Positions 1 through 55,887 of a stretch of DNA of 64,000 nucleotides are shown here, piece by piece (position 1 is the first letter of the stretch; each line of letters opens with the position of its first letter). Below the pieces are notes generated by a model that was not told where the DNA came from, made no database searches, and saw only the letters and a list, made by a program, of their open reading frames with translations. The position numbers and the translations under genes are program-made. This DNA comes from Schmidtea polychroa (Eukaryota): the NCBI GenBank assembly GCA_044892525.1, contig CM097885.1, positions 33,358,001 to 33,422,000 of the forward strand, given 5' to 3'.

Positions 1-39
1 TGGTGTAAATAATGTTATATTCTATTATAAACCTTTCAC

Positions 40-388
40 TTGCTTGCTTGCGTTGATCAGTTTGGATGCCGCCTTTATTTATAATATAGGTTTTCAGTAT
101 TTGACATTTTTTTAGATTAATTCTTAGTTTATCTTCTGCAATTTTCTGCAATATTCTTTCCAACAGTTGGTAGTGTTCTTCCATCGTGTTCGTAAAAATT
201 GATATATCGTCCAAATAAACCATTACCTGGTCTTTCCACAAATCCTTTAATATCTTCTCCATAAGCTCTGGAAACGTGCCTGGTGCTGCTGTGATGCCAA
301 CCGGCATTCGGTTGAAACAGAATTGTCCTTATTTCGTTGAAAAACTGTTTTCACCTGTGATTCTCTATTCAATCTTACCTGATAGTAT
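40..388 (-). pseudogene. Ty3/Gypsy reverse transcriptase fragment, interrupted at 388 by the LTR insertion
   Basis: Minus strand reads YYQVRLNRESQVKT..GQFCFNRMPVGITAAPGTFPELMEKILKDLWKDQVMVYLDDISIFTNTMEEHYQLLERILQKIAEDKLRINLKKCQ, with lesions. Contains YLDD and other Gypsy RT motifs. Confidence 0.9.
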
Positions 389-1448
389 TGTTGAGGTCCG
401 TAAATTAAAATAAATTTAAATGAAATTTAGGTTAATAATTTAAATAAAAAGTAAGTGAAGAAAAAAGACAAATAAAATCGTGATCATGTACAGAATTGAT
501 AGCAAAGGAAAGTACGATGGAAGCAGTATTAGAAAATGCCAAAAGCAATTACGAAAGGCAAGAATCCGGAAATCCGAGAAAAATCAATAAATTGTAAAAT
601 CATCGAAATCGAATTGGAAAAACGGGACAGGTATAGAGTAGCTAATGGTCAACAAGATGATGGTTTGGGATTTATCAGAAAATTGTTAGGACGGGTCGAA
701 AAGCATTCAAATGTGTAAAAACAGAAAACGTTAATTAATTAATTAATTGGCTAATAGAAAACCCGAGATAATGGGAAACCCGAGCCAATGGAGAACCCGA
801 GAGATAAAGGAAACCCGAGCTGGGTAAACAAGAAGAAAAGCAAACAGAAGGAAGATTTGGGCCCATTAGCTTGACACAATGATTAATGGGAAAAGAGCAA
901 GGAGAAGAAAGCGCGTAGGAAGACCGGAAGGGCCATTAATTATCTGGATTCGTTGAACCATTATGGGTGACAGCCGAAGCAAATACGTAGGAGCAAATGT
1001 CAAATGAAAGATTGGCTCGGCAATAACCATTTGTCATCCTGATTTCGAGGAGTATATAAGGAAAGGGAAAATCAGAGAAAATCGGCATTCTGCCTCAGCT
1101 AAGGTTGGAAGAAACAAAGCTTAGGAAAAGGCGAAAACGAATTAGGGAAAGTTGGGAAAAGAAGAAATAGAATTAGGAATACGGAAAGGTGAAAAAGGAA
1201 TCAAATCAAACAGAAACCGAGGAAAACGTGAGTCAAGAGAATCTAAAGGAATAAAAGGTGAATATTATCTATTTGCAAAGCATCAACGCCGAGCGGAGAA
1301 TCGTATAAAACTTTGATTAGTAATTGTAAAGTGGTGATAATAAATTGTGAACCTGTTGTTTCAATATACGTTGGGTCGTTCATTGTTTTGATTTAAAGAA
1401 CACTAGGAAGTCAGAGGGAACCGACTTGAAGTAATCCGAAACCCAACA
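389..1448 (+). repeat. 5' LTR (~1060 bp)
   Basis: Starts TGTTGAGG and ends ACCCAACA (short terminal inverted repeat). TATATAA at 1053 and AATAAA at 1339. PBS follows 7 bp later. The start coincides with the break in the older RT. Shares blocks with the LTR at ~11581-12572. Confidence 0.85.
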
Positions 1449-1455
1449 TATATTC

Positions 1456-1473
1456 TGGTGAGCCCGACGTGAT
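1456..1473 (+). promoter_or_regulatory. Primer-binding site, tRNA-Trp-like
   Basis: TGGTGAGCCCGACGTGAT differs at one position from the classic tRNA-Trp PBS TGGTGACCCCGACGTGAT and lies directly after the LTR. Confidence 0.85.
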
Positions 1474-1735
1474 TGCAAGTCGGCGGAAAATTATTGAAAG
1501 TTAGTGAAAAAAAATAATTATTGAAAAATAGTACCGACGTGATTAAAAGTCGGAGGAAAATTATTGAAAGCTAGTGAAAAAGAAATTATTAAAAAATTAG
1601 TACCGACGTGATTGAAAGTCGGCGGTGTATTAAAAGCTAGTTAATTATTGGAAAAGTACTACAGACGTGAGTGAAAGTCGGCTGAGAATCATTGAAAGTG
1701 GTGAAAATTTGTGAAAATAGTGCTAACGAGATTAT
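1463..1735 (+). repeat. Leader tandem repeat (~65-70 bp, ~4 copies), each with a CCGAC...GTCGG hairpin
   Basis: CCGACGTGATTG(C/A)AAGTCGG-like units at ~1464, 1534, 1603 and 1663, separated by A-rich spacers. Confidence 0.8.
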
Positions 1736-1793
1736 TAAAGGTTATTATTGGGAGATTTTAAATTATTGTTTAACATTTGAAGTTTAGCTCAAA

Positions 1794-2015
1794 GTGAACC
1801 GATACAACCTCAGAAGTCAAAAACAAGTCCAAATGGCAAATGACAATGCTGTTATGCCTCGCAACAGAGAGATGATTGATTTCGCAAGTTGTCAGAAATT
1901 ACCCGTCAATCAATATGGAGGAGACCCTGTTGAATTTGCAGATTTCATGGGAGATTATTATATGTATGCCTCAGCATACGGATGGCACTCACTAACCCAA
2001 AGTGAACTAAAGTGA
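1794..2015 (+). CDS. Gag N-terminal fragment of the LTR element
   Basis: LPVNQYGGDPVEFADFMGDYYMYASAYGW resembles the Ty3/Gypsy Gag N-terminal F/YxG...F...F...A....W pattern. First ORF after the PBS. Confidence 0.55.
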   Translation: MNRYNLRSQKQVQMANDNAVMPRNREMIDFASCQKLPVNQYGGDPVEFADFMGDYYMYASAYGWHSLTQSELK

Positions 2016-2075
2016 GCCATAAATTTATGTGCAAAGTTATTCAAAGGAAACAGAGACGATGAGATACTTAAACAA

Positions 2076-2519
2076 ATGCAAAAGTTTGGCAAGGCTTTAC
2101 GGTCAACAAGGGATTTAGCTGATATCATATTGGAAACGACGGGACTTGATAATGTGAAGTACCAATTCCGTGTAAATGCCTACGGGCAAATCATAGAGCT
2201 AAAGGAGCGAATACTGCGTCAATACAGTGGATGGCAAGTGCAATTAAAATTTGAGAATCGATGTCTGGAAGACGAGGAGTACTTGGTAGATTGCGGTTTG
2301 ATACCAGGCTGGAAAAATAAAGTAAATGTTGTTAATGCTGTTTATACTTTGAATTCAGACAGACAAAATTGGGAAAAGATTCTAGCAGATTTACAAGATA
2401 CCCTGTATGCAGGGAATAGGGATAAAATTAATGCGAGTATCGATTTCATAATGAGCATCGAAATGGATCGAGACATGAAAGAAGGGTTGTTTGAATGCAT
2501 CGTACCCTATACGAATTAA
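2076..2519 (+). CDS. Polyprotein segment with ubiquitin-like domain 1
   Basis: IIELKERILRQYSGWQVQLKFENRCLEDEEYLVDCGL parallels ubiquitin IENVKAKI...[22 protein letters not shown]. No di-Gly end. Confidence 0.65.
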   Translation: MQKFGKALRSTRDLADIILETTGLDNVKYQFRVNAYGQIIELKERILRQYSGWQVQLKFENRCLEDEEYLVDCGLIPGWKNKVNVVNAVYTLNSDRQNWEKILADLQDTLYAGNRDKINASIDFIMSIEMDRDMKEGLFECIVPYTN

Positions 2520-2603
2520 CCGACAAGTTATCAGACAAAGTTAAAAGAGGTAATCAGAAGACTAGGACATGATTATGAGGCGGCAGACGATAGTGCGAAG
2601 TCT

Positions 2604-4583
2604 TTGATAATAGCGTTTAATATTGCGGATCAAAGGATTGAATATTATCAGAAACATTGGAGTGTAAAAGCAAAGAAAATACGACAGAAAGCAGCGGAGA
2701 TATTAGGTAATGAAGGAATTATCGTGTTGACGTTCAAAGGACGAGAATTAGATGATGACGAATATTTGTTAAACTACGGATGTAACCCAAATTGTATTAA
2801 TAATGTGTACGCAACAAAACAAAGTGATGAAATGGAAAGAGATGCAGTAATAGTACCGTTTTGGCCTCCGTATGAGGAAACGGATAATGATAATGGTGAG
2901 ATTAAAACTGAAGTTGTAGATGACCCAGGAGAAATTGATCAAGAAATTAATGAATTGCAGAGATTAGAAACAATGGAAAATGAGGAAATGGGATCGGAAA
3001 ATGAAATTACAAGGGATATCGAGGAAATGAGCACCGATAATAGGGCACTACCGAGCATAGATGAGATGAAAAGTGAAGAGAACTTCGTTGAAACGAAAAA
3101 TAACATTGCGATATGTCGGAAAAAACAGAATGATGCGGAAACTGAATCTTTGAGTTTAGATGAATTAAGCGAGACTGAGCGAATATTAAAAAGTTTAGTT
3201 ACGGAATTGTACTTGTTAGATGAAACTGAAACAGAAGGAGATGATACTTCGGAGGGGGAGAAAAGAGTTGTAAAGAGATTGGCAACGGAATTAAAGAGGA
3301 GATTGCCGTCGATAATTAAAAGAAATTATGAAGAAAAGGAATTTTGTGAGGAAGCAGTAATTGAGGACCTAACACGAACCGAGTTGGATCGAGATGTAAT
3401 ATTGACAGTGCTAGCCTATATAATATTGGAGATTGGTATTTATGGTTGTCTGGAAGCTGACAATTCAAAATCATTGATAAAGAAAGCCACTGAAATGACA
3501 AATAAATATTTGATGAAGTGGATCGCAAACAATGGCGGATGGGAAAAGTTGATACAAAAGGCTGAGAGCCCAAAAACAGAGACAGTGAGGAAAAAGGGAA
3601 AACTCGCATTTCCATGGTTGATGATCTCTATTATTATGTTATTGGGAATAATAAACACGACGAATTCATTGGTGGCATACGACTGCTCCCAATTCAAAAT
3701 GGGGAGAGTATATTCGTTGGTAAACGTAGCAGAGTGTTCAGATGCATACCCAGTAAAATTTAAAGTGACAAATCCAGTAAAATATCTTGTATATCAAGAA
3801 TCGGGGTTTCGACGAGCAAAGGTGAGAGAGTGTACAGTGAAACGAACTACTTTTGTATTTTATTGTGGAAAATGGAGCCACTCATCGATGGTGAAAATGC
3901 AATCGATACCGAGACCGATAGAAATAATTCCAGAGAATTGTTTGGCAGCCTTTCAAACAGGACAGTTGAAAATCAATGCAGATATTAAACTACAAGCAAA
4001 GCTTAACCACAAAATCCGTGAGACTGTAACCGTGCGTGGGATAATAAAGTCGAATGGAGATTGCCAAGGAGAGCCATACAAAGTAGACGATGCTATAATT
4101 GACAAAGCCGTGGTTGTGGAAGAGTACATGTTAGAATTAAGAGAATTTGATGGATCATTTGATGATGATACTGGTAAACTACAAACACATCCATTCTGCA
4201 ACATGAAACAATCTAGCTGTCAGACAGGAGAATCAATCTTGGTGTATGATGTCGATACCAAAAGGTGCAATTTAGTGCAATTGAAGTCAATGAGTTTTAA
4301 AGAAATAACGGGAGAACAGATCAGGGAAAAGCCTGAGAAGATAAGAATGGATCCAGCAACGAGTACAACAACAAGAATCACACCTCTACGGATGAAAGAT
4401 ACTCCAACAGTGTTAATGTCAACCTCGACAGAAGATGGGATGCGATTCCTGAGAAAAGAAACTAAAACAAAGTGTGGACAAAATGTCTATGAGACAAATT
4501 ATAAAGGTATATATGTATCTCAGAAGGTGATTACAGAGGCCCAAACAAACATACATGCCGGAGATATTAAGTTGACAAATTAA
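2604..4583 (+). CDS. Polyprotein segment: UBL2, acidic linker, Bcl-2-like domain, TM/signal peptide, N-terminal half of class III-like envelope glycoprotein
   Basis: UBL motif LTFKGRELDDDEYLLNYG (2604-2820). BH2-like WIANNGGWEKL (3519-3551). Hydrophobic PWLMISIIMLLGII, then LVAYDC (3669) and a Cys-rich ectodomain of chuvirus/gB-like type. Confidence 0.8.
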   Translation: MIIAFNIADQRIEYYQKHWSVKAKKIRQKAAEILGNEGIIVLTFKGRELDDDEYLLNYGCNPNCINNVYATKQSDEMERDAVIVPFWPPYEETDNDNGEIKTEVVDDPGEIDQEINELQRLETMENEEMGSENEITRDIEEMSTDNRALPSIDEMKSEENFVETKNNIAICRKKQNDAETESLSLDELSETERILKSLVTELYLLDETETEGDDTSEGEKRVVKRLATELKRRLPSIIKRNYEEKEFCEEAVIEDLTRTELDRDVILTVLAYIILEIGIYGCLEADNSKSLIKKATEMTNKYLMKWIANNGGWEKLIQKAESPKTETVRKKGKLAFPWLMISIIMLLGIINTTNSLVAYDCSQFKMGRVYSLVNVAECSDAYPVKFKVTNPVKYLVYQESGFRRAKVRECTVKRTTFVFYCGKWSHSSMVKMQSIPRPIEIIPENCLAAFQTGQLKINADIKLQAKLNHKIRETVTVRGIIKSNGDCQGEPYKVDDAIIDKAVVVEEYMLELREFDGSFDDDTGKLQTHPFCNMKQSSCQTGESILVYDVDTKRCNLVQLKSMSFKEITGEQIREKPEKIRMDPATSTTTRITPLRMKDTPTVLMSTSTEDGMRFLRKETKTKCGQNVYETNYKGIYVSQKVITEAQTNIHAGDIKLTN

Positions 4584-4637
4584 TTTAATAACAAAATAGA
4601 TTATTTATTTCACTTTGGTCAAAATACCGTTGAAAAT

Positions 4638-6503
4638 GTGTACCGAGAAGTTATTATAAATGATTGCAATCTCAACAAAGAAATACTCCGAAATCGGATG
4701 GCAATGGCTATAACCAATCCTAATTTAGTAGCACCAATGTTAATTACAGAAAATGGGGTGTTTGCCAGAATTTTCGGTGAAGCACTATATAGCTATAAAT
4801 GTAAAGCGGTACCAGTCGAACTGACAAAGTACGACCAATGCACCAACGAGTTGCCAGTAAATTTAAATGGAAAGTTGCGATTTATGGAGCCTGTAACACG
4901 AATCTTACTGGAAGAGGACGTGAAACCGAAAGTATTACAGTGCAATAGATTGTTGGCACCACTATACAGACTAACACCAGAATCTTGGATTGCATTACCA
5001 GATCATCGAGAAGTAAAGACACCGGAAAATTTAGAATTGACAGAATTACAATATCTGGTAAATTTTACGTCGTTAGAAAAATTGTCGCAAAGTGGAATTT
5101 ATTCGAGCGAAGACATTAAGGAAGCTCGCAGAAACTTGTTATTTCCATCAAAGAAAGAAAGAGTAATAATGGAAATGGTAGATACAATTCTCCCAAGCGG
5201 AAGTGGGAAGGTAAATTACGAGTATTTATTAACTCCAGATCATTACAAAAAAGCGACGTATAATACAATGAAAAGGATCTGGGGAAACTTTATGTTCATT
5301 GGACAAGCGTGTGCCGGATTGATTAGAATTTATGTAATATGTGTTGTAATTAAAGTAATAATATCGCAGGTCCTATCAACACACAGGTTATACGCGATCA
5401 CAGGTTGGTCGTGGAAACTAGTAATTGGTTGCATACCATTATTGGCTAGATTCTTCATTACTCATCATCAATATCAGGAGTTGGAGATACTCAAGGCGCG
5501 AATATTAAAGAAGAAAAAGGTGAGCTACGCTAGTACAACCCCTTCAAGGGACGAGAATAATGACAATGACAACGAGGGTGATAGTGCACCGTTATATGTT
5601 GACAATCAAGAACTAAGTGGAATGAATAAAGAAGCGTTAAGAACCTATCAAATCTTAAAAGAGCCACTGTTGAATGCGAGTAGCGTAGACACGTTTACAA
5701 AATTGCGTATAACAAAATCGTTTATGCAATCAGCACCAGTTTATCCAGTTGATCGATTACGAGAAATGAAGCCAGTCGAAAATATCGCATTACAATGCGA
5801 AAGAATGGCAGGAGAGAGAGTCGAGAGAAAAAATATGCTAGGCTTACCATGCAATTACTCATTGATGACATTAACAAAAAGAGGAAAACAACCCCGAATA
5901 TTTATACAAATGAACAAACATAAAGTGGAAGCTTTGGTTGATTCGGGATCTAGTCACACAATAATATCGGAAAATGTATTAAACGCGAAGGAAAGAATGC
6001 GAATAAAGCCTACCGACGAAATAGTAAGGTCATTATCAAAAAACGAATTAAACATAATTGGACAACTTAACGTCGTATTTCATATTGGAGATCGAATAAT
6101 AGCGCACGATGCACTCATAATGAAGGGAAGTCCAGTACGATATCTGATCGGCATGGATATATTAGAGCAGCTGGACGGAATCTCACTTGATTTAAAGACA
6201 GGTAATTTGATAGCAGGAGAAACAGGAGAAATAATTCACAGGGCAGGTGAAGTGTTTGTGAATCAGACATTGACAATACCACCACAATCGGAGATGGTAT
6301 ATTGTGCAAATACCACGAGTGTGGATAATGGTGATTTTATATTCGAACCAAATCAAACACTAGTCGAAAAATATGATCTACCGATATGTGACGAAATTGT
6401 CAAAGTGGAATCAATATGGACTAAAGCCGGTTTGACAATAAAGCAAAACCAAGAGAAATATAAAGAAGCCTACGATAAAAATGCACATGCGCATGGCATA
6501 TAA
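4638..6503 (+). CDS. Polyprotein segment: envelope C-terminal half, TM helices, retropepsin protease, then post-integrase-like tail
   Basis: GEALYSYKCKAVPV..CTNELPV..FMEPVTRIL..SGIYS motifs typical of chuvirus-like glycoproteins. Hydrophobic segment ~5280-5460. ALVDSGSSHTII (DSG at 5940) and LIGMDIL mark an aspartic protease. Confidence 0.82.
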   Translation: MYREVIINDCNLNKEILRNRMAMAITNPNLVAPMLITENGVFARIFGEALYSYKCKAVPVELTKYDQCTNELPVNLNGKLRFMEPVTRILLEEDVKPKVLQCNRLLAPLYRLTPESWIALPDHREVKTPENLELTELQYLVNFTSLEKLSQSGIYSSEDIKEARRNLLFPSKKERVIMEMVDTILPSGSGKVNYEYLLTPDHYKKATYNTMKRIWGNFMFIGQACAGLIRIYVICVVIKVIISQVLSTHRLYAITGWSWKLVIGCIPLLARFFITHHQYQELEILKARILKKKKVSYASTTPSRDENNDNDNEGDSAPLYVDNQELSGMNKEALRTYQILKEPLLNASSVDTFTKLRITKSFMQSAPVYPVDRLREMKPVENIALQCERMAGERVERKNMLGLPCNYSLMTLTKRGKQPRIFIQMNKHKVEALVDSGSSHTIISENVLNAKERMRIKPTDEIVRSLSKNELNIIGQLNVVFHIGDRIIAHDALIMKGSPVRYLIGMDILEQLDGISLDLKTGNLIAGETGEIIHRAGEVFVNQTLTIPPQSEMVYCANTTSVDNGDFIFEPNQTLVEKYDLPICDEIVKVESIWTKAGLTIKQNQEKYKEAYDKNAHAHGI

Positions 6504-6519
6504 TAATAAATTTATGTCG

Positions 6520-7180
6520 GATTTGAAGAATTTTAAAACCAAGTTGGATTTAACTAATTAAATCATAATTTAAGTCTTGCTGCGAAGTATATATTTAATA
6601 AAATGAAAGAATTTTTAACTATAATAATTGCTGTTTATAATTCATATTTTCCTTTGTACATCGATTGGCTTTCTTATTGTTTTTCGTCTTTATGACATAT
6701 ACTTTCTGTGTGAAGTTTTTCTTTGCGAGACAATTTTTTTATAGAATCCATATGTTGGAGTATCTACTTCTATTTTAATTTTTAAGTCCAGTAGATTGAG
6801 GGATCCATCTTTTTCCGAAAATTCGATTTCAAACGTAATATCTCAGTGAGTAGCATTAAATATATGATATATTTATTCCGCTTCCTTTCTGATCTTGACC
6901 GTGATAAAATATCATCTACATATCTTGCGTAGAAACCGACGGATTGTATGGTTCTCGGTGTTTGTTGTTCGAGGTTGTTCGTTTGTTGTTCGGAATATTT
7001 TGTAACGAAGCTTTTAGGTAATCTGTTCTTGAAGCCCATTTCTATAAGCCTTTCCATACTTTGTTGATCTTCATTTCTTATGATATTTGGTGACAAGCGG
7101 CTAATTTTCTTGTATGTACCGATGTCGCTGAGGTGATCGTAAGCAACTTCACAGTATCGGTTTTTCTCTATTAAGCAAAA
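6520..7180 (-). mobile_element. Penelope-like element RT fragment (deleted), truncating the LTR element
   Basis: Minus strand: FCLIEKNRYCEVAYDHLSDIGTYKK, FYARYVDDILS, ITFEIEFSEKDGSLNLLDLKI. Confidence 0.75.
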
Positions 7181-7428
<248 letters not shown>

Positions 7429-8919
7429 GTTTTTAATTTAGTAAATGCATTTATACTTTTAAAATTTACTATTTCGTTATAATGTAAAAAATCGTACCGA
7501 AATCACAAATAATGTTATGTATAAATAAAAGAAAAATAAAATATCATAAAATTATCTTTTAGAAATGCATTTGGCGGATGGATAATGACTACAAAAAACT
7601 GTTTTCACCATTAAAATAATACAATGGTCATTAATTGGTTATTGTTGTTGCAGTTTATGAAATATTATAACTAATTAACTCTATATATATATTGCATACC
7701 CTTAGTGAAGAAATAATACTCCTTTCATTATAGTGGTGGGTTACAGATAACCGGACTATACCGCTCAGTGTTGTTTCCAGCGTAACCCAGAATGTTTCTT
7801 TACCAATCGATACCCGTTGAGTAATAACTTAATAACTCCGGCTCCTCATTTTTATTTTAGTGTATTCTTTTCCGTAGTTGATCCGTTAAGGACCTGAGAA
7901 CATACTTTTCCCGTCTAACATTAATATAACTAAAATCTTTATTTCCATCACCCAGCAAATTTTCTATTGAGCGCTATCCAATATAATTTGTCATCACTCC
8001 ACTTATCACCACACTACTATTTGATGCAACATTTCAACACTAATTCATTGTTTCCCTAACCCATCATTTCCTCTCCAACTATGCCTCATATTAATTCGTC
8101 AGTTCACCCAATCATACCTTATTACCTTTTCTCATCTAAACTCTATCTATCATTAACGGCCTAAATTGTTTGGTAAGTCACTTAGCTCCTTTCTATTACT
8201 AGAACTTGGCGGTCACATCTACGATTGTGTTTCGGTTGGTAATGTATATGAGATTATATTGATTAAATGTCTCTTGCTTGAGTCATTTCCGATAAGTTTA
8301 TCAGAAGATTTTGACCAAAAACGTTTAATTAAACATAGCGAGATAAAATGAAGCATATTTACTTATTCTTATTCTCCGAATCTTACACATCAAACTTGTT
8401 ATGCGTACGATAAGATGTTCTCAACTTTTCCTATCTCAGATCTGGTGGATGTACGATCGAAAGAAGTTAGATGAGAACCTTCACAAATCTTTTAACGATT
8501 ACTTTTTGAGCCCCCAATAGAAGAAAATTTGACGGAGATTCACAAATGTTTTATATATTACCCTCTTCAATTACATGATAAACTTCCAGGAATCCCTGTA
8601 TTACAGATTTTACAAATAGGTGAGTGATTAGGTGGAGATATGATTTTTTTCAGAAGAGAATTAAAATGTTTTTGTCTTTCAACGAATAGATATCATTATC
8701 ATAGTCATAATAGGGAATCATTCACCAAATCATTGATTGCTTGCCTTTAACTTGTTAGCCTTCCTATGATATTTCCCGTCACCTTACTCGACTCTTTGGT
8801 CGAAGTTATGAGATAATTTGGTAGAACACTGTATGATAGTGCTTGAAATAAAATAATTCTCCAAAGAAGGGTGGATTAATTATTACTAGTTCATTTTTCG
8901 ATAATGGGCATCGACTACT

Positions 8920-10315
8920 TCCAACCATGTCTACTCACGACGGCTTGTCTCATTTGAGCAACAATACTTTTGGGGATCTCTTGATTTTTCAAATCTTTAC
9001 GGGTCCATCCCTCTCACTGGAGAGAACAACGTTTTAACAGTTACAGCTTCTTTCTTCGAAACCTTCAAACCAGAAACTGTTTTTGCAGACTTATCTGAAC
9101 AAGATTTCATAGAAATTGTCAAACTAGCCATAAACTCAGATACTGTATTAATTAAAGGAAAACCGTTCAAACAAATTCATGGTCTAGCTATGGGTAACAA
9201 TCTTTCGCCGATTTTAGCCATTTTCTACATGCATCATGTAGAATCAAATATTAGATCATTTTTTGGTGATAAAATCCTGATGCGGAAAAGATACATTGAT
9301 GACATTTTCATAGTCTCCACGGTTCCTCTCAATATAATCTTGGCACATGCAAACTCCACTAACACTAATATACAATTCACTCTTGAACTACCTGATCCAG
9401 AAGGCAAGATTGCTTTTTAGATACCATAATAAGTACTTCTGATGGTCCAAACACGCTCACATTCAAGACAGATTTATTCACTAAAAAGTCTACACAGTGG
9501 GCACATTCTTCCTTGGGAAAGTCATGTTCCACTCCAACGAAAAATCGCTCTATTAGTAGGAGAGAGAAAAAGAGCAATACGGAACTATTCGGACAAAACG
9601 AGAAAACAAGAAACCCTGGAAAACTTTAAAACATGGCTTTTACAAAATGGATATTCAAAGGAGTTCGTAGAAAAATAATTCTTGAGTGAATATATCTCTA
9701 ATAGGCATAATACACAAAAGGAACATGTCAATAAGCCAGTAACATACCTACACTTCCCTTTTTTAAACAATAGGACATGTAATACAATCAGAGCTTACAT
9801 TCGCAATATGAAGTTGGCAGTTCATATTCGCCCAATTTTTATAACTGCTGCACCTTTGAAATCACAGCTTTGTAAGTCTCAAAAATCTCTAACATCAGAC
9901 CTATTTCATCGAGATTGTATATGCCAATCCTCCACCAAATGTTTCTGCTTCTCAAAGAACATCGTTTACCAAATTACTTGCACAAGATGTGACGAATCTT
10001 ACATAAGAGAAACACTTAGAACGTTCCTAACAAGACTCAACGAACACTTCAAGAGCAATACCAGCAATTATCACGAACACTGAGGAAAAAAGTGCACAAA
10101 TCAGAACCACTCTTACACGAAACAAAATGCAAAATGTTACAAGATGCGTTCAAAATTCATTGCAAAGATTAGCCGCGGAGACTCTTTATATCAAAAAATT
10201 TAAACCGTCCATCAACATTCAACTAAATTAATACTTAAATTAATATTTAATTAAATTTAAAATTTAAAATTAAAAAAATATTTAAAAAATATAAAAAACG
10301 TTTTTTTATAAAATG
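8920..10315 (+). mobile_element. Penelope-like retroelement, 5'-truncated RT + GIY-YIG endonuclease, frameshifted
   Basis: SLDFSNLYGSIPL, GLAMGNNLSPILA, KRYIDDIF, IQFTLELP, LLQNGYSKEFV, and GIY-YIG NIVYQITCTRCDESYIRETLRTFLTRLNEH. Confidence 0.9.
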
Positions 10316-11580: not shown

Positions 11581-12572
11581 TGTTTTGAGGTTGTTAAAGT
11601 AAATTATTAAATTATATCAAATTGAATAGTTCCGAATAAAAAGAAAACAAAAATTGAACGAAAAAGAATGGCGGTCAAGCAGAGAAGTAATGGCAAAGAA
11701 AGATATGATAAAAACAGAACTATAAAAGCGTACAATCAGGCACGAAATGGAAAAATGCGCAAACCTGAGGAAGTGGAATAAAGTGAAATCTTATCGAAAT
11801 TGAAGCTGGAAAATAGGAGAGGGGTAGATTAGGGAATGGTTAAGAAGACAGTGAGCAAGAAATTATTAGAAAAGGTTTGGAAAGGGTCGAAGAACAGGCA
11901 AATATGGTAAAACACAAACTATTAATTAATTAATTAATTGGCTAATGGAAAACCCGAGCTAATGGGAAATCCGAGCCAATGGAGAACCCGAGCGATGACG
12001 AAAACACGAGCGCAGCAATTTGGGAGAATAAACAAGCTGGAAATTTAGAGGGCAATTATCCAAACAGTCGGATAAACGAGGGTAAACAATAGAAGGGGAA
12101 TTACTAAAAGGGTCAACAGAAATAACTAATTAGAGAACGATAACTAAGGAAGTAAAAACCAATTAGGTCAAAAACAGAGCAATTAAAACGATTATTGGAG
12201 TATATAAGGAAACTCCAAATTCAGATAATCGGCTAGTTTCTCGGGTAGGGAAAAAGAAACTGACAATAGGAGTTTGAGGAACAAAGCTAAGAACTGAAAG
12301 GCAATTATAAGAGGAACTGAAGAGTTCGAAAAAGAAATATTAAAGGAGTTCGGATCATAGAGTGGAATCAAATAAAACGGTGAAACCTATTTCGAGATTG
12401 TCCAGGGCGAAGTTTGATCAGAAATTGTGGTTAACTAAAAGTTGTAATTATTAATTGAGAATTGTAAATTTGCTATAAAACAAATATACGTTGGGAGTTG
12501 TGTTTACCAATTTAGGGACACGTGGAATCAGAGTAACCAACAATCGACTTTTTATTATCATAAAACCCAACA
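11581..12572 (+). mobile_element. Solo LTR of a family related to the 389-1448 LTR (left boundary approximate)
   Basis: Shares the (TAAT)n-GGCTAAT..AACCCGAG..CCAATGGAGAACCCGAG block, GAGTATATAAGGAAA, AATATACGTTGGG and the ACCCAACA end. No PBS follows and no TSD was found. Confidence 0.7.
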
Positions 12573-24690: not shown

Positions 24691-27600
24691 CAGGGGCGCT
24701 CCAAGCGGGCGTGCAACGCGTGCGTGGCATGCAGGCGGCCATTTGAAAGGCGGCAAATTAAAAAAATGCATTTGCAAAAACAACAATTTCATTTTGTAAA
24801 ATTCATTTTTTCATTTTGTAAAATAAAAAAAAAGTTTCGACTATTTTGTTACTGAACGCACACAGTTTGTGTAGTATCATTGAACGCACTCCATTAATTT
24901 TTATATATCTTGGCTTGTCATTGACAAATACTATTACACTAAATAACTTTGACAAGTTGTCAAAGTCATTTAGTGTTTTAATTTTGGATTCAAAACAACA
25001 TTAATATTTCCAGTTTTTAAATTTATAAAAATCAATAAGATTTTTATTTAAAAAAAAATAGAGATATATAATATTAGATTAGAAAGCAGGATTGTATTAT
25101 AGAATTTGGTAAGTATAATTCAACTTTTTCTATATTTTTGTTAAACATAAGTATTATCATGTACGTTAGATATTTATTATTTGTATTATTTGCACCATTA
25201 GATATGACCGGAAGAAAAACAAAACGTTTATCTGGCGCACAATACAAAAAGCAGCGTTTAAATAAACTGAAATCAATGCAGAGTTTGAAGAATTCGCTTT
25301 CAAAATATTTTAAAATACACCAACAGCGTCGTCAAGCACACCTATAGAAATAGAAAATAATGTTACCATATCTGTTGACGATAATAAAAGTTCTAGTGAT
25401 AGCGATGAGAATGAATATGAAATTTTTACAGAAATTCGGTCTGAAAATTCATCTGTTGGAAATTCATCTGACGAAAATTGTGAAGCAAATATAATATTGG
25501 ACGATCCAGGTATGTGGGCAAATAATATATCAAGTATTACCGCACGTAACCTTGTCGAAAGAGGACCGATTCAAATAAAAATTTTCGAATTTCCATTGTC
25601 AAGTGGGCGTAAATTTTCAAAAAAGTATTATTTAAGACAATTGCCGAACGGAGAAGAAACACAACGCGAATGGCTTGTGTATTCAATTACTAAAAATTCT
25701 GTGTATTGTTTTTGCTGTAGGATATTTGATTTCAGTGATAAAAGCAGTCTATCCGATTCATCTGGTTTTTCTGATTGGCAACATTTATCGTTAACTTTGT
25801 CTCGACATGAAAAAAGTCAGTTTCATAATGAAAATATAAAAAAATGGATATTGTTAAATAAATCATTAAAAAATAATACTACAGTTGATAGTGCGAACCA
25901 AAGACTATTACAAGCCAAACGAAAGTATTGGTATGAAGTAATTCAACGAATAATATCTATTATTCAATATCTTTCTAGGCAATGCCTTGCCATAAGAGGA
26001 AAGTCAAATCAATTATATGCAAATAACAATGGAAACTTTTTGAAAGCAGTAGAAATGGTTGCCAGATTTGACCCTATTTTGCAAGAGCATGTACAACGGA
26101 TTGAAAAGTCTCGAAACAATTTGAAATATATGCCTCATTATTTGGGGGATAAAATACAAAACGAAATTATCAATATTATTAGCACAAGTATTAAAAACGC
26201 TATATTAGATTTAATTAGAAAAGCAAAATATTTTTCAATTATATTAGATTGCACACCAGATGTTAGTCATACTGAGCAATTAACTATTGTAATAAGAATT
26301 GTGAATTTGGAATCAAAAAAAATTGAAATACGTGAACATTTTTTGGGTTTCTATCAAATAACAAATACTACCGGCGAGGGGTTAACCGAATTTGTTTCAA
26401 AAGAACTTTCAAATCTAAATTTAAATATTCATAATATGCGTGGACAGGGATATGACAATGGTGCCAATATGCGAGGAAAGCATAATGGCTTACAAAAAAA
26501 GAATTTTAAATATCAACCCGCGAGCATTTTTTGTACCATGTTCTGCTCATAGCTTAAATTTAGTTGTTAATGATGCGGCACATATTTCACATGAAACAAT
26601 AACATTTTTTGATTTAGTACAAGAAATATATGTAGTTTTTTCGGCGTCAACTAAAAGATGGGCGATAATAGTAAAATATTCACCGAATTTAAAATTAAAA
26701 CCCCCGAGCGATACAAGGTGGTCAAGTAGAATTGATGCCATACAACCACTAAGGTATCATACTGAACAAATTTATAAATCTCTTCTTGAAATATCAAATG
26801 ATCAATTGATTGACTTTAAAACCAGACATGTGGCAAATTCTCTTTCACTAAAAATATCAAGTTATCGTTATTTATGTTCCATTGTTATTTGGCATGAAAT
26901 TTTGATGAAAATTAATGTTGTTAGTCAAATATTACAGAACCCAAACACCGATATCAATAGAAGCGTTACCGCGTTAGATGATTTAATAGAGTTTTTTTAA
27001 AAATTGTCGTAATGATAATGGATTTGAAAAAATGCTTACATCAGCTAGTGAATTAGCCGAAAAATTACACGTAGAACCTAAATTTCCAGAAGTTTCAAGT
27101 TTAAGAATAAGAAGAAAAACAACAAATTTTGATTATAAAGGCAAGGATGAACCAATATTAGATCCAAAAACAAATTTTAAAATTAACTTTTATTTCTGCA
27201 TTATCGACCAAGCATTAGTATCAATTACAACAAGATTCGAAGCGTTAAAATCGTATAATGATATATTTGGATTTATGTATAATATTAAAGATATAACAGA
27301 AGAAATACTTTTGAAAAGCTTCAAAGATTTACATTTGAAATTAACTGACGAACAAAGAAATGAGTCCGATATTAATGGAATTGATTTATTCGAAGAGATA
27401 AAAACTATAAAGGTATTTTTAAAAGAAAAAGATATTAAACCTCAATCTATATTATTATATATTTTACAAAATGATCTTCAGGCAACATTCCCAAATATAT
27501 TCATTGTGACCAGAATTCTATTAACATTACCAATCTCAGTTGCAACAGGTGAAAGATCGTTTTCAAAATTGAAGATAATTAAAAATTATTTACGATCAAC

Positions 27601-27996
27601 TATGCTCCAGGAACGTTTAAGTAATATATCAATAATTTCAATAGAACATGAAATCCTAGATAATTTAGATATGCATGACTTAATTTCACAATTTACTTTG
27701 AACAAGGCAAGAAAAGTCTCTTTTGTATGAGTAGTAAACTATTAATTTCATAAACTTTCTATTGTTTGTGTGTACTAAACTATAACTTTCCTAAACTTAT
27801 CTGTTTTGTGATAAATAAACTATAATTTTCATAAACTATTGCATGTGATATGTGTGTTCTACCGTAGTTAGTTTAATTTTTACTTTAATTAAATGTTATT
27901 TTTATTTTGGATTATAGAAACTTTTTTGCAGCAAGGATGAAGAGCGGCGGGAAATTATTTTGCACCCAAGGGGCCTAACAGCTCGGCGCGCCCCTG
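24691..27996 (+). mobile_element. Full-length hAT DNA transposon (ZMYM1-like transposase), inactivated by frameshifts
   Basis: TIRs CAGGGGCGCTCC / CGGCGCGCCCCTG. 8-bp TSD TTGTAATA/TTTTAATA. Transposase ORFs inside. Confidence 0.93.
25204..27730 (+). pseudogene. hAT transposase (TTF-type Zn finger, DUF4371-like core, hATC dimerisation domain) with frameshifts near 25315, 26500 and 26995
   Basis: MTGRKTKRLSGAQYKK, WLVYS..VYCFCC, IILDCTPDVSHTEQ, GQGYDNGANMRG, CSAHSLNL, TRWSSR, LPISVATGERSFSKLKIIKNYLRSTM. Confidence 0.92.
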
Positions 27997-54982: not shown

Positions 54983-55887
54983 TCATACAATCCCGAGTAT
55001 AAGCTGCAGCTAATACGTACATTAAGGCAACATTTCTGAATTGCAGCTAATATGATGTGCAGCTTATACAACTAAAAAACAATTCAAATCGAAGATAAGA
55101 TTATTTATTTCAATTTTCAACATCACACTCCTCAAAACCATCACACTTTTCATTGTCAATAAAAGTGAAACTTGGCACCTTTAGTCTCAATTGTGTACCC
55201 TAAAGGCATGTCACATTGAATGGACACTTCATCAAAATTACCGATTTGATTATCGGGCAAATCCTTCTTTAAATATGCGATGGTGCTTCTAAACTTGGCC
55301 ATCTGAATTTTCCCAATCTTTCGGTAATTGTTGCTTCGTGGTAGGCCGTCGAACACAAATATTCTTACAACCGACACTTGAAGTTCTCGTTCACGTTGAA
55401 TTAGGATCCATTCGTGTAATTTCGTTTCCAATTCCGGATATCTAGCGTTACCACCACGAAAACATCTTCGATTTGGATTCATTGCTTTGATAACAGACTC
55501 TTGGGCGATCCATCGTCGAATAGCAGTTTCATTAATATCATATCGTCTTGCAACCTCCCGTATGTTTCCTAACTGACGAGCTAATTCAATAACTTCTTTT
55601 TTCTTTTCTGAACTAAAATATCTTCGTTGTTTCTTTTGTTTTTGTTCAGAATCGTTATCCATTTTAATCAAGGATTCAAAACAGTGCAATAAACAATGTA
55701 AACAATGTAAACGATTAAAACGGTGAAATTTGTTTTTTAATGATAGGTTGCTGATATTAAAATCATGTGTTTTCAACGCAAATGGTGCAGCTAATACGTG
55801 CTGCGGTTTATACGACTAAAAATACATTTTTATAAAAATGTCATCTGCAGCTAATACGCGCTGCCGCTTATACTCGGGATTTTACAG
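54983..55887 (-). mobile_element. Internally deleted pogo-family transposon
   Basis: TIRs AATCCCGAGTATAAGC at both ends. ORF 55156-55776 has an HTH (KKKEVIELA..VARRYDINETAIRRW), a CENP-B-like HTH (YPELETKLHEWI) and the DDE start IGNFDE. Confidence 0.85.

Follow-up and report, generated by a model that had tools for sequence, protein, structure and literature searches.

The hydrophobic segment that separates a Bcl-2-like domain from the Env glycoprotein in the LTR retroelement of this window (the whole 64,000-nucleotide stretch analysed) is, on comparison with related proteins, well supported as the signal peptide of Env itself, placed internally in a long polyprotein. We consider it probable that this is the glycoprotein's own signal, which became internal once an env of the gB/chuvirus type lay in frame between gag and pol, and that any anchoring of the Bcl-2-like domain is a by-product of this arrangement.

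The retroelement and its published relatives

The window is AT-rich eukaryotic DNA in which an LTR retroelement spans 389–6500, and a reading frame at 1833–6503 contains, in this order, a Gag-like fragment, two ubiquitin-like (UBL) domains, the Bcl-2-like domain, the hydrophobic segment, Env and a protease. The features are as follows.

389..1448, + strand: 5' LTR (TG...CA), its ends identified by sequence; resembles a solo LTR-like stretch at 11581–12572
1456..1473, + strand: primer-binding-site-like motif; three further units resembling it extend to about 1712 (families D2 and D4)
1833..1985, + strand: Gag-like N-terminal fragment, weakly matching the N-terminal end of P0004 (E 0.009)
2154..2360, + strand: ubiquitin-like domain 1, weak (Pfam ubiquitin E 0.071); resembles domain 2 (E 1e-5)
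2592..2822, + strand: ubiquitin-like domain 2, weak; resembles domain 1, in a region matched by P0056, P0086, P0116 and P0003
3153..3560, + strand: Bcl-2-like domain (Pfam Bcl-2 E 0.19) with a BH2-type WIANNGGW at 3519–3542
3588..3602, + strand: basic n-region RKKGK (frame +3 translation)
3603..3653, + strand: h-region LAFPWLMISIIMLLGII, 17 residues, beginning 21 residues past the BH2 tryptophan
3654..3668, + strand: polar c-region NTTNS (T and S at positions -3 and -1), lacking basic residues
3669..5276, + strand: Env ectodomain of gB/chuvirus type (class III), first residues LVAYDC (PF24664 E 2.2e-27 and 1.3e-46)
5277..5363, + strand: Env membrane-proximal region and transmembrane (TM) helix (KD19 2.43)
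5391..5462, + strand: second, weakly hydrophobic, Cys-containing helix (helix 2; KD19 1.38), read as a membrane-surface helix
5895..6182, + strand: retroviral-type aspartic protease with DSG at 5940 (Pfam gag-asp_proteas E 5.4e-8)
6411..6500, + strand: short piece corresponding to sequence that lies past the integrase core in relatives (blastp: P0008 2164–2204, E 9e-5; P0014 2092–2118)

The 5' LTR and the solo LTR-like stretch share 73% identity over 933 columns, with a score of 439 compared with at most 15 in 20 shuffles. We liken the primer-binding-site-like motif, presumptively, to the 3' end of tRNA-Trp; the 64-kb window contains no tRNA gene. In-frame stops are present at 2013, 2517 and 4581, the last of which falls inside Env. 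Relatives, represented by contigs of four public runs, have about 1.26 kb extra in the Gag region at 1985/1989, and in the contig of run X5 this length separates the parts matching 1660–1985 and 1989–6410. Between 6410 and 6411 this copy lacks RT, RNase H and the integrase core, with the X5 contig diverging past 6410; it has no intact ORF between two LTRs, and the window contains no matching 3' LTR. Because of the three stops, the Gag deletion of about 1.26 kb and the loss of RT, RNase H and integrase core, this copy cannot make the polyprotein, and any mechanism therefore concerns the family and not this copy.

The window element belongs, as a defective copy, to a planarian GAG-ENV-POL family of Ty3/gypsy elements that has already been published. 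Its Env stretch differs from that of Smed_errantivirus_2 at 5 of 251 residues, counted by eye (PMC13524379, supplement file 3), and supplement file 2 of that report lists Smed_errantivirus_2 as spanning about 14.8 kb, with 215 copies. Smed_errantivirus_2 is described there as a GAG-ENV-POL, HSV/gB-type Ty3/gypsy errantivirus, and the GAG-ENV-POL order is reported in nematodes, bryozoans and flatworms (PMC13524379). Gene order and Env type are common to this element and the window copy, although internal deletions and three stops set the latter apart. The Burro elements published in 2019 have UBL, BCL2, Env and protease in frame in that order, and Burro and GYPSM1 resemble the present family in holding Gag, ubiquitin-like, BCL2-like, mononegavirus-like Env and protease regions in one frame and in the same order, with the Burro BCL2 standing last before Env among many cargo domains (PMC6431247). 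Burro differs in being >30 kb, with an ORF of about 4,900 aa and BIR, MATH and ankyrin cargo (PMC6431247), whereas the matching family spans about 14.8 kb; Pfam gave no BIR, MATH or ankyrin matches in the window copy, which itself lacks the about 1.26 kb Gag stretch. Two other groups carry the same Env family: the Anakin Pao elements, which belong to BEL/Pao and not to Ty3/gypsy (bioRxiv 10.1101/2020.02.15.950899), and stand-alone chuvirus-like glycoproteins (PF24664), which share the signal-to-YDC register but have their signal at the N-terminus.

The element, the in-frame gag-env-pol order and the BCL2–Env adjacency are already known (PMC6431247, PMC13524379). The account of Burro in PMC6431247 does not discuss signals or topology, and the terms 'Bcl', 'polyprotein', 'signal peptidase', 'lumen' and 'endoplasmic' do not occur in the main text of PMC13524379, figures lying outside this count. 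Internal cleavage, an HCV- or flavivirus-like topology and an anchor role were not found in the literature searched, an absence that carries little weight as related reports, figures and supplements lay outside it.

A probable internal signal peptide for Env

The original prediction described a basic RKKGK, a hydrophobic h-region and NTTNS|LVAYDC with small residues at -3 and -1, and we note that all of these are present at 3588–3686, inside a stop-free segment (2520–4580, frame +3) and with LVAYDC at 3669–3686. The best 19-residue Kyte-Doolittle mean of the segment is 2.01, and the Pfam Monjiviricetes_fusion match (E 2.2e-27) starts within the h-region, profile position 5 corresponding to window position 3621.

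Relatives were collected with a protein search of 1.84 billion representatives that returned 352 matches, of which 150 were listed and 100 of these 150 were placed on the YDC motif. Counts are drawn from the matches listed and refer to 19 polyproteins plus the window (n=20) and to 25 stand-alone proteins of 550–760 aa. Fragments beginning inside the signal, three chimeric calls (P0006, P0010 and P0026) and four unclassified proteins (P0054, P0075, P0096 and P0124) were left out, and P0094 was used solely in the tree and hydropathy tables. A separate scan for metagenome loci gave 52 pattern matches, none of which was confirmed.

In the stand-alone glycoproteins the hydrophobic run that follows the initial Met stops three residues short of YDC, and this is the register of NTTNS|LVAYDC. 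Sites were scored with a home-made signal profile, a position matrix covering -14 to -1 that was derived from 25 stand-alone glycoprotein signals and includes no Env residues. NTTNS|LV ranks 1 of 1542 frame positions (score 9.7, with the next at 5.5); across 13 frames the matching site is first in six and among the top three in 11, and the top site lies no more than 10 residues from the register in 12. P0002 (with Met at -1, rank 17), P0041 (rank 91) and P0051 are poor fits to the exact register. Small residues at both -3 and -1 are found in 18 of the 20 polyproteins (8/10 of those in which Bcl-2 precedes the signal and 10/10 of those lacking Bcl-2) and in 17 of the 25 stand-alone proteins, compared with a background of 11.5% of positions, and in the polyproteins the -2 position varies while the pattern is kept; the sequences are related, so that a binomial value overstates this conservation and is not taken as a probability. 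The Cys density of Env is 2.6–2.7% in 10/10 polyproteins, compared with 0–3% in the flanks. Because of the register, the profile ranks, the -3/-1 pairs and the Cys density, we regard the segment as standing in register with Env's own signal and its cleavage pattern as having been kept; we infer that cleavage occurs at NS|LV or within a few residues of it, and the proposal that Env is translocated from an internal signal is supported accordingly by register, rank and pattern alike.

The Bcl-2-like domain

There is moderate evidence, from profile and model comparisons, that the domain upstream of the segment is Bcl-2-like, in agreement with its original assignment. Single-sequence E-values are 0.06–0.19, and an alignment profile matches Bcl-xL with E 3.5e-4. 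With leave-one-out profiles, seven element domains recognise one another (E 6e-6 to 5e-16), the window domain doing so with E 2e-12. Foldseek comparison of a model with pLDDT 51 places Bcl-2 family members at all of ranks 1–50 (best E 7e-3, probability 1.00), and VIA gives Z of 5.5–6.9 for many Bcl-2-family chains, amid unrelated helical rows; Atlas matches to the domain (0.79) are a lead only. A single-sequence fold (pLDDT 49.5) had no usable structural match, and an NWGR-type motif, which we take to be the BH1 motif, is missing from the BH1 region of the seven aligned domains. Calcium-channel matches in the alignment-profile search derive from the chimeric gene call P0120 and were rejected. 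Word-index protein searches returned no matches, either at E<=1e-3 with 687 aa or at E<=10 with Bcl-2 plus signal, and therefore no cellular donor of the domain was found with which its original tail could be compared.

Proposed membrane topology of Env and protease

A luminal Env with one TM helix and a cytosolic protease is supported by hydropathy and by motifs in the Env tails, with the weaker helix 2 as a caveat. Nine of 10 polyproteins have a single peak with KD19 of at least 1.6 in the interval from the cleavage site to the first protease motif, and P0041 has two. Helix 2 follows the TM in all of the family members compared, the stand-alone proteins included, and usually contains Cys together with Pro or charged residues. 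Its median KD19 values are 1.34 and 1.22, compared with 2.15 and 2.05 for the TM, and it reaches at least 1.6 in one of 12 polyproteins and two of 15 stand-alone proteins (3/27). Approximate insertion energies, which include a positional damping of our own, were used qualitatively only. LYPxL-, P[TS]AP- or PPxY-type motifs are present past helix 2 in the tails of nine of 15 stand-alone Envs and five of 12 Envs from polyproteins; shuffles average about 0.6, with 0/500 as high, and the motif set was chosen post hoc, after the tails were inspected. We assume that such motifs are cytosolic budding signals; the 120-residue tail of the window Env itself has no LYPxL/PTAP/PPxY-type motif.

A second signal-like segment is present after the integrase in P0008, P0014 and P0022 (matrix ranks 6, 18 and 5 of 2,600–3,200 positions), and in two of the three it is followed by 215–261 residues and a TM with 3–4 basic residues behind it; a signal in this position fits a cytosolic Pol. 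The core helix of the window Bcl-2-like domain is TM-like (2.25, compared with 0.65–1.27 in seven relatives), and a topology predictor could therefore miscount the window copy. The one strong helix in nine of 10 polyproteins and the tail motifs favour the proposal that the Env TM would return protease and Pol to the cytosol, and the comparison likewise supports a likeness to the polyproteins of HCV and the flaviviruses, the original prediction having named flaviviruses or alphaviruses.

Three other arrangements were weighed. Helix 2 could also span the membrane, in which case the protease would be luminal in threaded chains and Pol would come from untranslocated chains or from another RNA form. 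This helix is conserved, is about 20 residues long with one hydrophobic face, and passes a KD19 of 1.6 in P0041, P0059 and P0102, but its medians fall well below those of the TM, it often contains K/R/H/D and Pro, the tails beyond it are enriched in cytosol-acting motifs, and the signal-like segments past the integrase suit a cytosolic Pol; a second membrane span here seems quite improbable. The segment could instead act as an uncleaved signal-anchor; Env would then either remain attached to Bcl-2/Gag, the product spanning the membrane twice, or be released by a cut of the viral protease on the cytosolic face. DeepTMHMM placed gB-type ectodomains between a signal and a TM or, in some elements that are not specified, between two TMs (PMC13524379), and the h-regions of the polyproteins are somewhat more hydrophobic than the stand-alone ones (p 0.04 and 0.01). 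Retention of the -3/-1 pattern against its background, with -2 varying, argues otherwise, although the sequences are related, and we regard an uncleaved anchor as very improbable.

Production of Env from a spliced or internally started RNA, which would make the segment an ordinary N-terminal signal and leave the long frame unthreaded, is disfavoured by the sequences, and the likelihood that we assign to it is slight in the extreme. The env of gypsy is usually made by splicing, and 13 of the 20 polyproteins have a Met 15–40 residues ahead of the site; seven of the 20, however, have no such Met, and a pyrimidine-rich acceptor is absent from 3351–3640. Contigs of runs X1 (3518–4271) and X5 (1989–6410) are colinear across the junction, although contigs drop rare forms, and no end near the junction is found among the 15 joints listed of 67. 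Single ORFs moreover hold Gag-UBL-Bcl-2-Env (P0004), Bcl-2-Env-protease (P0002) and Env-Pol (P0008, P0014, P0022 and P0023).

Tail anchor or by-product

The original prediction also held that a Bcl-2 tail anchor doubles as the Env signal. Its position does suit a tail anchor, lying 21 residues past BH2, but reuse of a tail anchor as the signal, or its maintenance for both jobs, was not borne out: the Env register, 10 Bcl-2-less polyproteins and the order of branching in the Env tree speak against an origin as a Bcl-2 tail anchor. The segment resembles the tail anchors of Bcl-2 and Bcl-xL in being a hydrophobic helix at this distance from BH2 with basic residues ahead (PMC2172731); it differs in not being C-terminal in the precursor, in its polar, cleavable c-region, in the absence of a downstream basic pair and in being shorter in most relatives.

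True dual use would mean that Bcl-2 is kept directly before Env because the cleaved signal provides a stable tail anchor for an ER-resident anti-apoptotic protein. Consistent with this, the h-region starts 21–57 residues past the BH2 tryptophan in nine of nine measurable cases, and a gapless alignment to full-length Bcl-xL covers BH2 and extends as far as the first part of the h-region (query 9–51, chain 181–223; E 0.4, not significant). The window h-region of 17 residues, with four basic residues ahead, is at the lower edge of the 17–23 reported for tail anchors (PMC2172731), and the placement of BCL2 in Burro is the same. Against it, the segment is also present in 10 polyproteins without adjacent Bcl-2, and the h-regions of the Bcl-2 group have a median length of 13.5 (range 8–18, n=10), below that of typical tail anchors (PMC2172731). 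Mitochondrial tail anchors have two basic residues on both sides of the TM (PMC2172731), a consensus from which the window departs in having no basic residues in its c-region, so that only an ER anchor would be possible; at least two basic residues are found in the c-region of one of 10 Bcl-2-bearing sequences.

We found no sign of selection for Bcl-2 anchoring when the h-regions of 10 polyproteins with and 10 without Bcl-2 were compared: median lengths, by a crude maximal-segment measure, are 13.5 and 13.5 (p 0.70), and hydrophobicity does not differ (p 0.35 and 0.43), although groups of 10 related sequences have little power and equal h-regions are compatible with selection. P0089 was assigned to the Bcl-2 group by a GGW motif alone, without a profile match, and the Bcl-2-less P0008, P0009, P0019 and P0020 hold <240 upstream residues, such that Bcl-2 could lie farther upstream. 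Bcl-2 directly precedes the signal in 10/10 Bcl-2-bearing cases, a placement that the by-product model does not require; in the Bcl-2-less P0014 and P0020 a ubiquitin-like stretch leads to the segment (by eye and blastp).

The Env tree, a quick search with 31 rows, separates the 15 stand-alone proteins at 100%. Five Bcl-2-less polyproteins branch outside a group holding five Bcl-2-bearing ones (support 91–93 at the nodes around this group), and P0001, which has Bcl-2, clusters with three Bcl-2-less rows at 97%. The Bcl-2 label needs three changes on this tree while the signal is constant. The simplest history that the tree suggests is that the internal signal came first, with Bcl-2 inserted before it later and then lost in some lines. 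Most likely, on these comparisons, the segment exists for Env translocation and the anchoring of Bcl-2 is a by-product of its insertion site; dual use as a selected trait is plausible but unsupported, and we consider it unlikely. The two readings have the signal and topology part of the original interpretation in common, and with both taken together that part is very likely.

A proposed membrane-threaded polyprotein

In an intact family member, Gag-UBL-UBL-Bcl-2 would be made in the cytosol, SRP would bind the segment on its emergence, and the segment would insert with its N-terminus in the cytosol and its C-terminus in the lumen, signal peptidase being predicted from sequence to cut at or near NTTNS|LV. 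The Cys-rich Env ectodomain would fold in the ER lumen and a single TM would stop transfer, with helix 2 on the cytosolic membrane face and the protease and Pol in the cytosol, as hydropathy and the tail motifs indicate. The cut signal would stay on the upstream product, such that Gag, and Bcl-2 where present, would be ER-tethered at least initially, as is HCV core, and Bcl-2 would gain an ER anchor through its insertion position. This anchor may later be trimmed by signal peptide peptidase or by the viral protease, and the anchoring of Bcl-2, which would follow from the topology once cleavage occurs, could be transient.

In flavivirus C-prM and in alphavirus structural polyproteins, the signal of a glycoprotein forms the end of the protein that precedes it, which lies in the cytosol. 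In HCV the E1 signal forms the end of core, which stays anchored once signal peptidase has cut and is then released by signal peptide peptidase (PMC5402940). The proposed likeness to HCV core-E1 lies in an upstream cytosolic protein that carries the next glycoprotein's signal and would be ER-anchored after the cut, and in the return of the enzymes to the cytosol. The proteins are nevertheless unrelated, since here a reverse-transcribing element carries a fusogen of class III, and the second cut, by signal peptide peptidase, is a feature of HCV (PMC5402940) but in the planarian element a possibility only.

A broader proposal, which we put forward tentatively and regard as doubtful, is that flatworm GAG-ENV-POL elements are membrane-threaded as a group, with Gag and its cargo (Bcl-2 as a decoy) held at the ER by the signal and Pol held by the Env TM. 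Gag, Env and Pol would then be made 1:1:1, budding would take place at the ER as in HCV and flaviviruses, and the Bcl-2-like protein would be displayed at the ER or within the membrane of the particle. Some relatives would have four membrane crossings and, past the integrase, another luminal protein. Env has a message of its own in retroviruses and classic errantiviruses, and we found no account, in the literature searched, of a single-chain route to a luminal Env and a cytosolic Pol in gag-env-pol elements. Such a route, convergent with that of HCV and the flaviviruses, could be provided by an internal signal that is conserved, the cut site predicted for it and one stop-transfer helix. On this view the captured Bcl-2-like domain should be bound to the ER and not mitochondrial, which bears on the reported role of Burro1, by way of its IAP region, in protecting planarian stem cells from apoptosis (cited in PMC13465017).

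Post-integrase module in related polyproteins

Some of the related polyproteins recovered by protein search with the window's sequence contain a second signal-like segment C-terminal to the integrase:

P0008, 2486-2743, second signal-like segment and downstream module
P0014, 2257-2563, second signal-like segment and downstream module
P0022, 2780-2799 onward, second signal-like segment

In P0008 and P0014 this segment is followed by a Cys-containing ectodomain and then by a TM segment with a basic tail, and the two ectodomains have in common a short CNxLxPDTxY motif, which we take to be fibronectin type III-like. Judged from sequence, the module in these two polyproteins could constitute a second luminal protein, giving a total of four membrane crossings. 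The database assigns P0014, under the label hypothetical protein, to a Flavobacteriaceae MAG, although its sequence is that of a eukaryotic gypsy polyprotein, and its presence there is likely to be contamination. We also note that P0002, P0003, P0008, P0009 and P0041 have at least two aspartic-protease-like domains in tandem, C-terminal to Env.

The predicted proteins P0006, P0010, P0026 and P0120, from the same search, join Env pieces to host-like genes, the partners in P0006, P0010 and P0120 being MRP-L47, FAD oxidase and calcium channel. These fusions are probably gene-calling chimeras, but may instead reflect exonisation of Env pieces.

Other repeats and mobile-element remains

The window also contains the following features:

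2-328, minus strand, RT fragment, separate from the Penelope-like pieces
1456-1712, four units of ~60-70 nt, each with a primer-site-like core, in the element's 5' untranslated region
7170-7410, microsatellite, a long run of (TTA)n with one short patch inverted
8905-10083, plus strand, broken RT and GIY-YIG pieces, Penelope-like
11581-12572, solo LTR-like stretch
25314-27730, plus strand, three overlapping ORFs with hAT transposase
55156-55815, minus strand, HTH transposase-like ORF

Because the solo LTR-like stretch has 73% identity to the element's LTR, we assign it to a related family.
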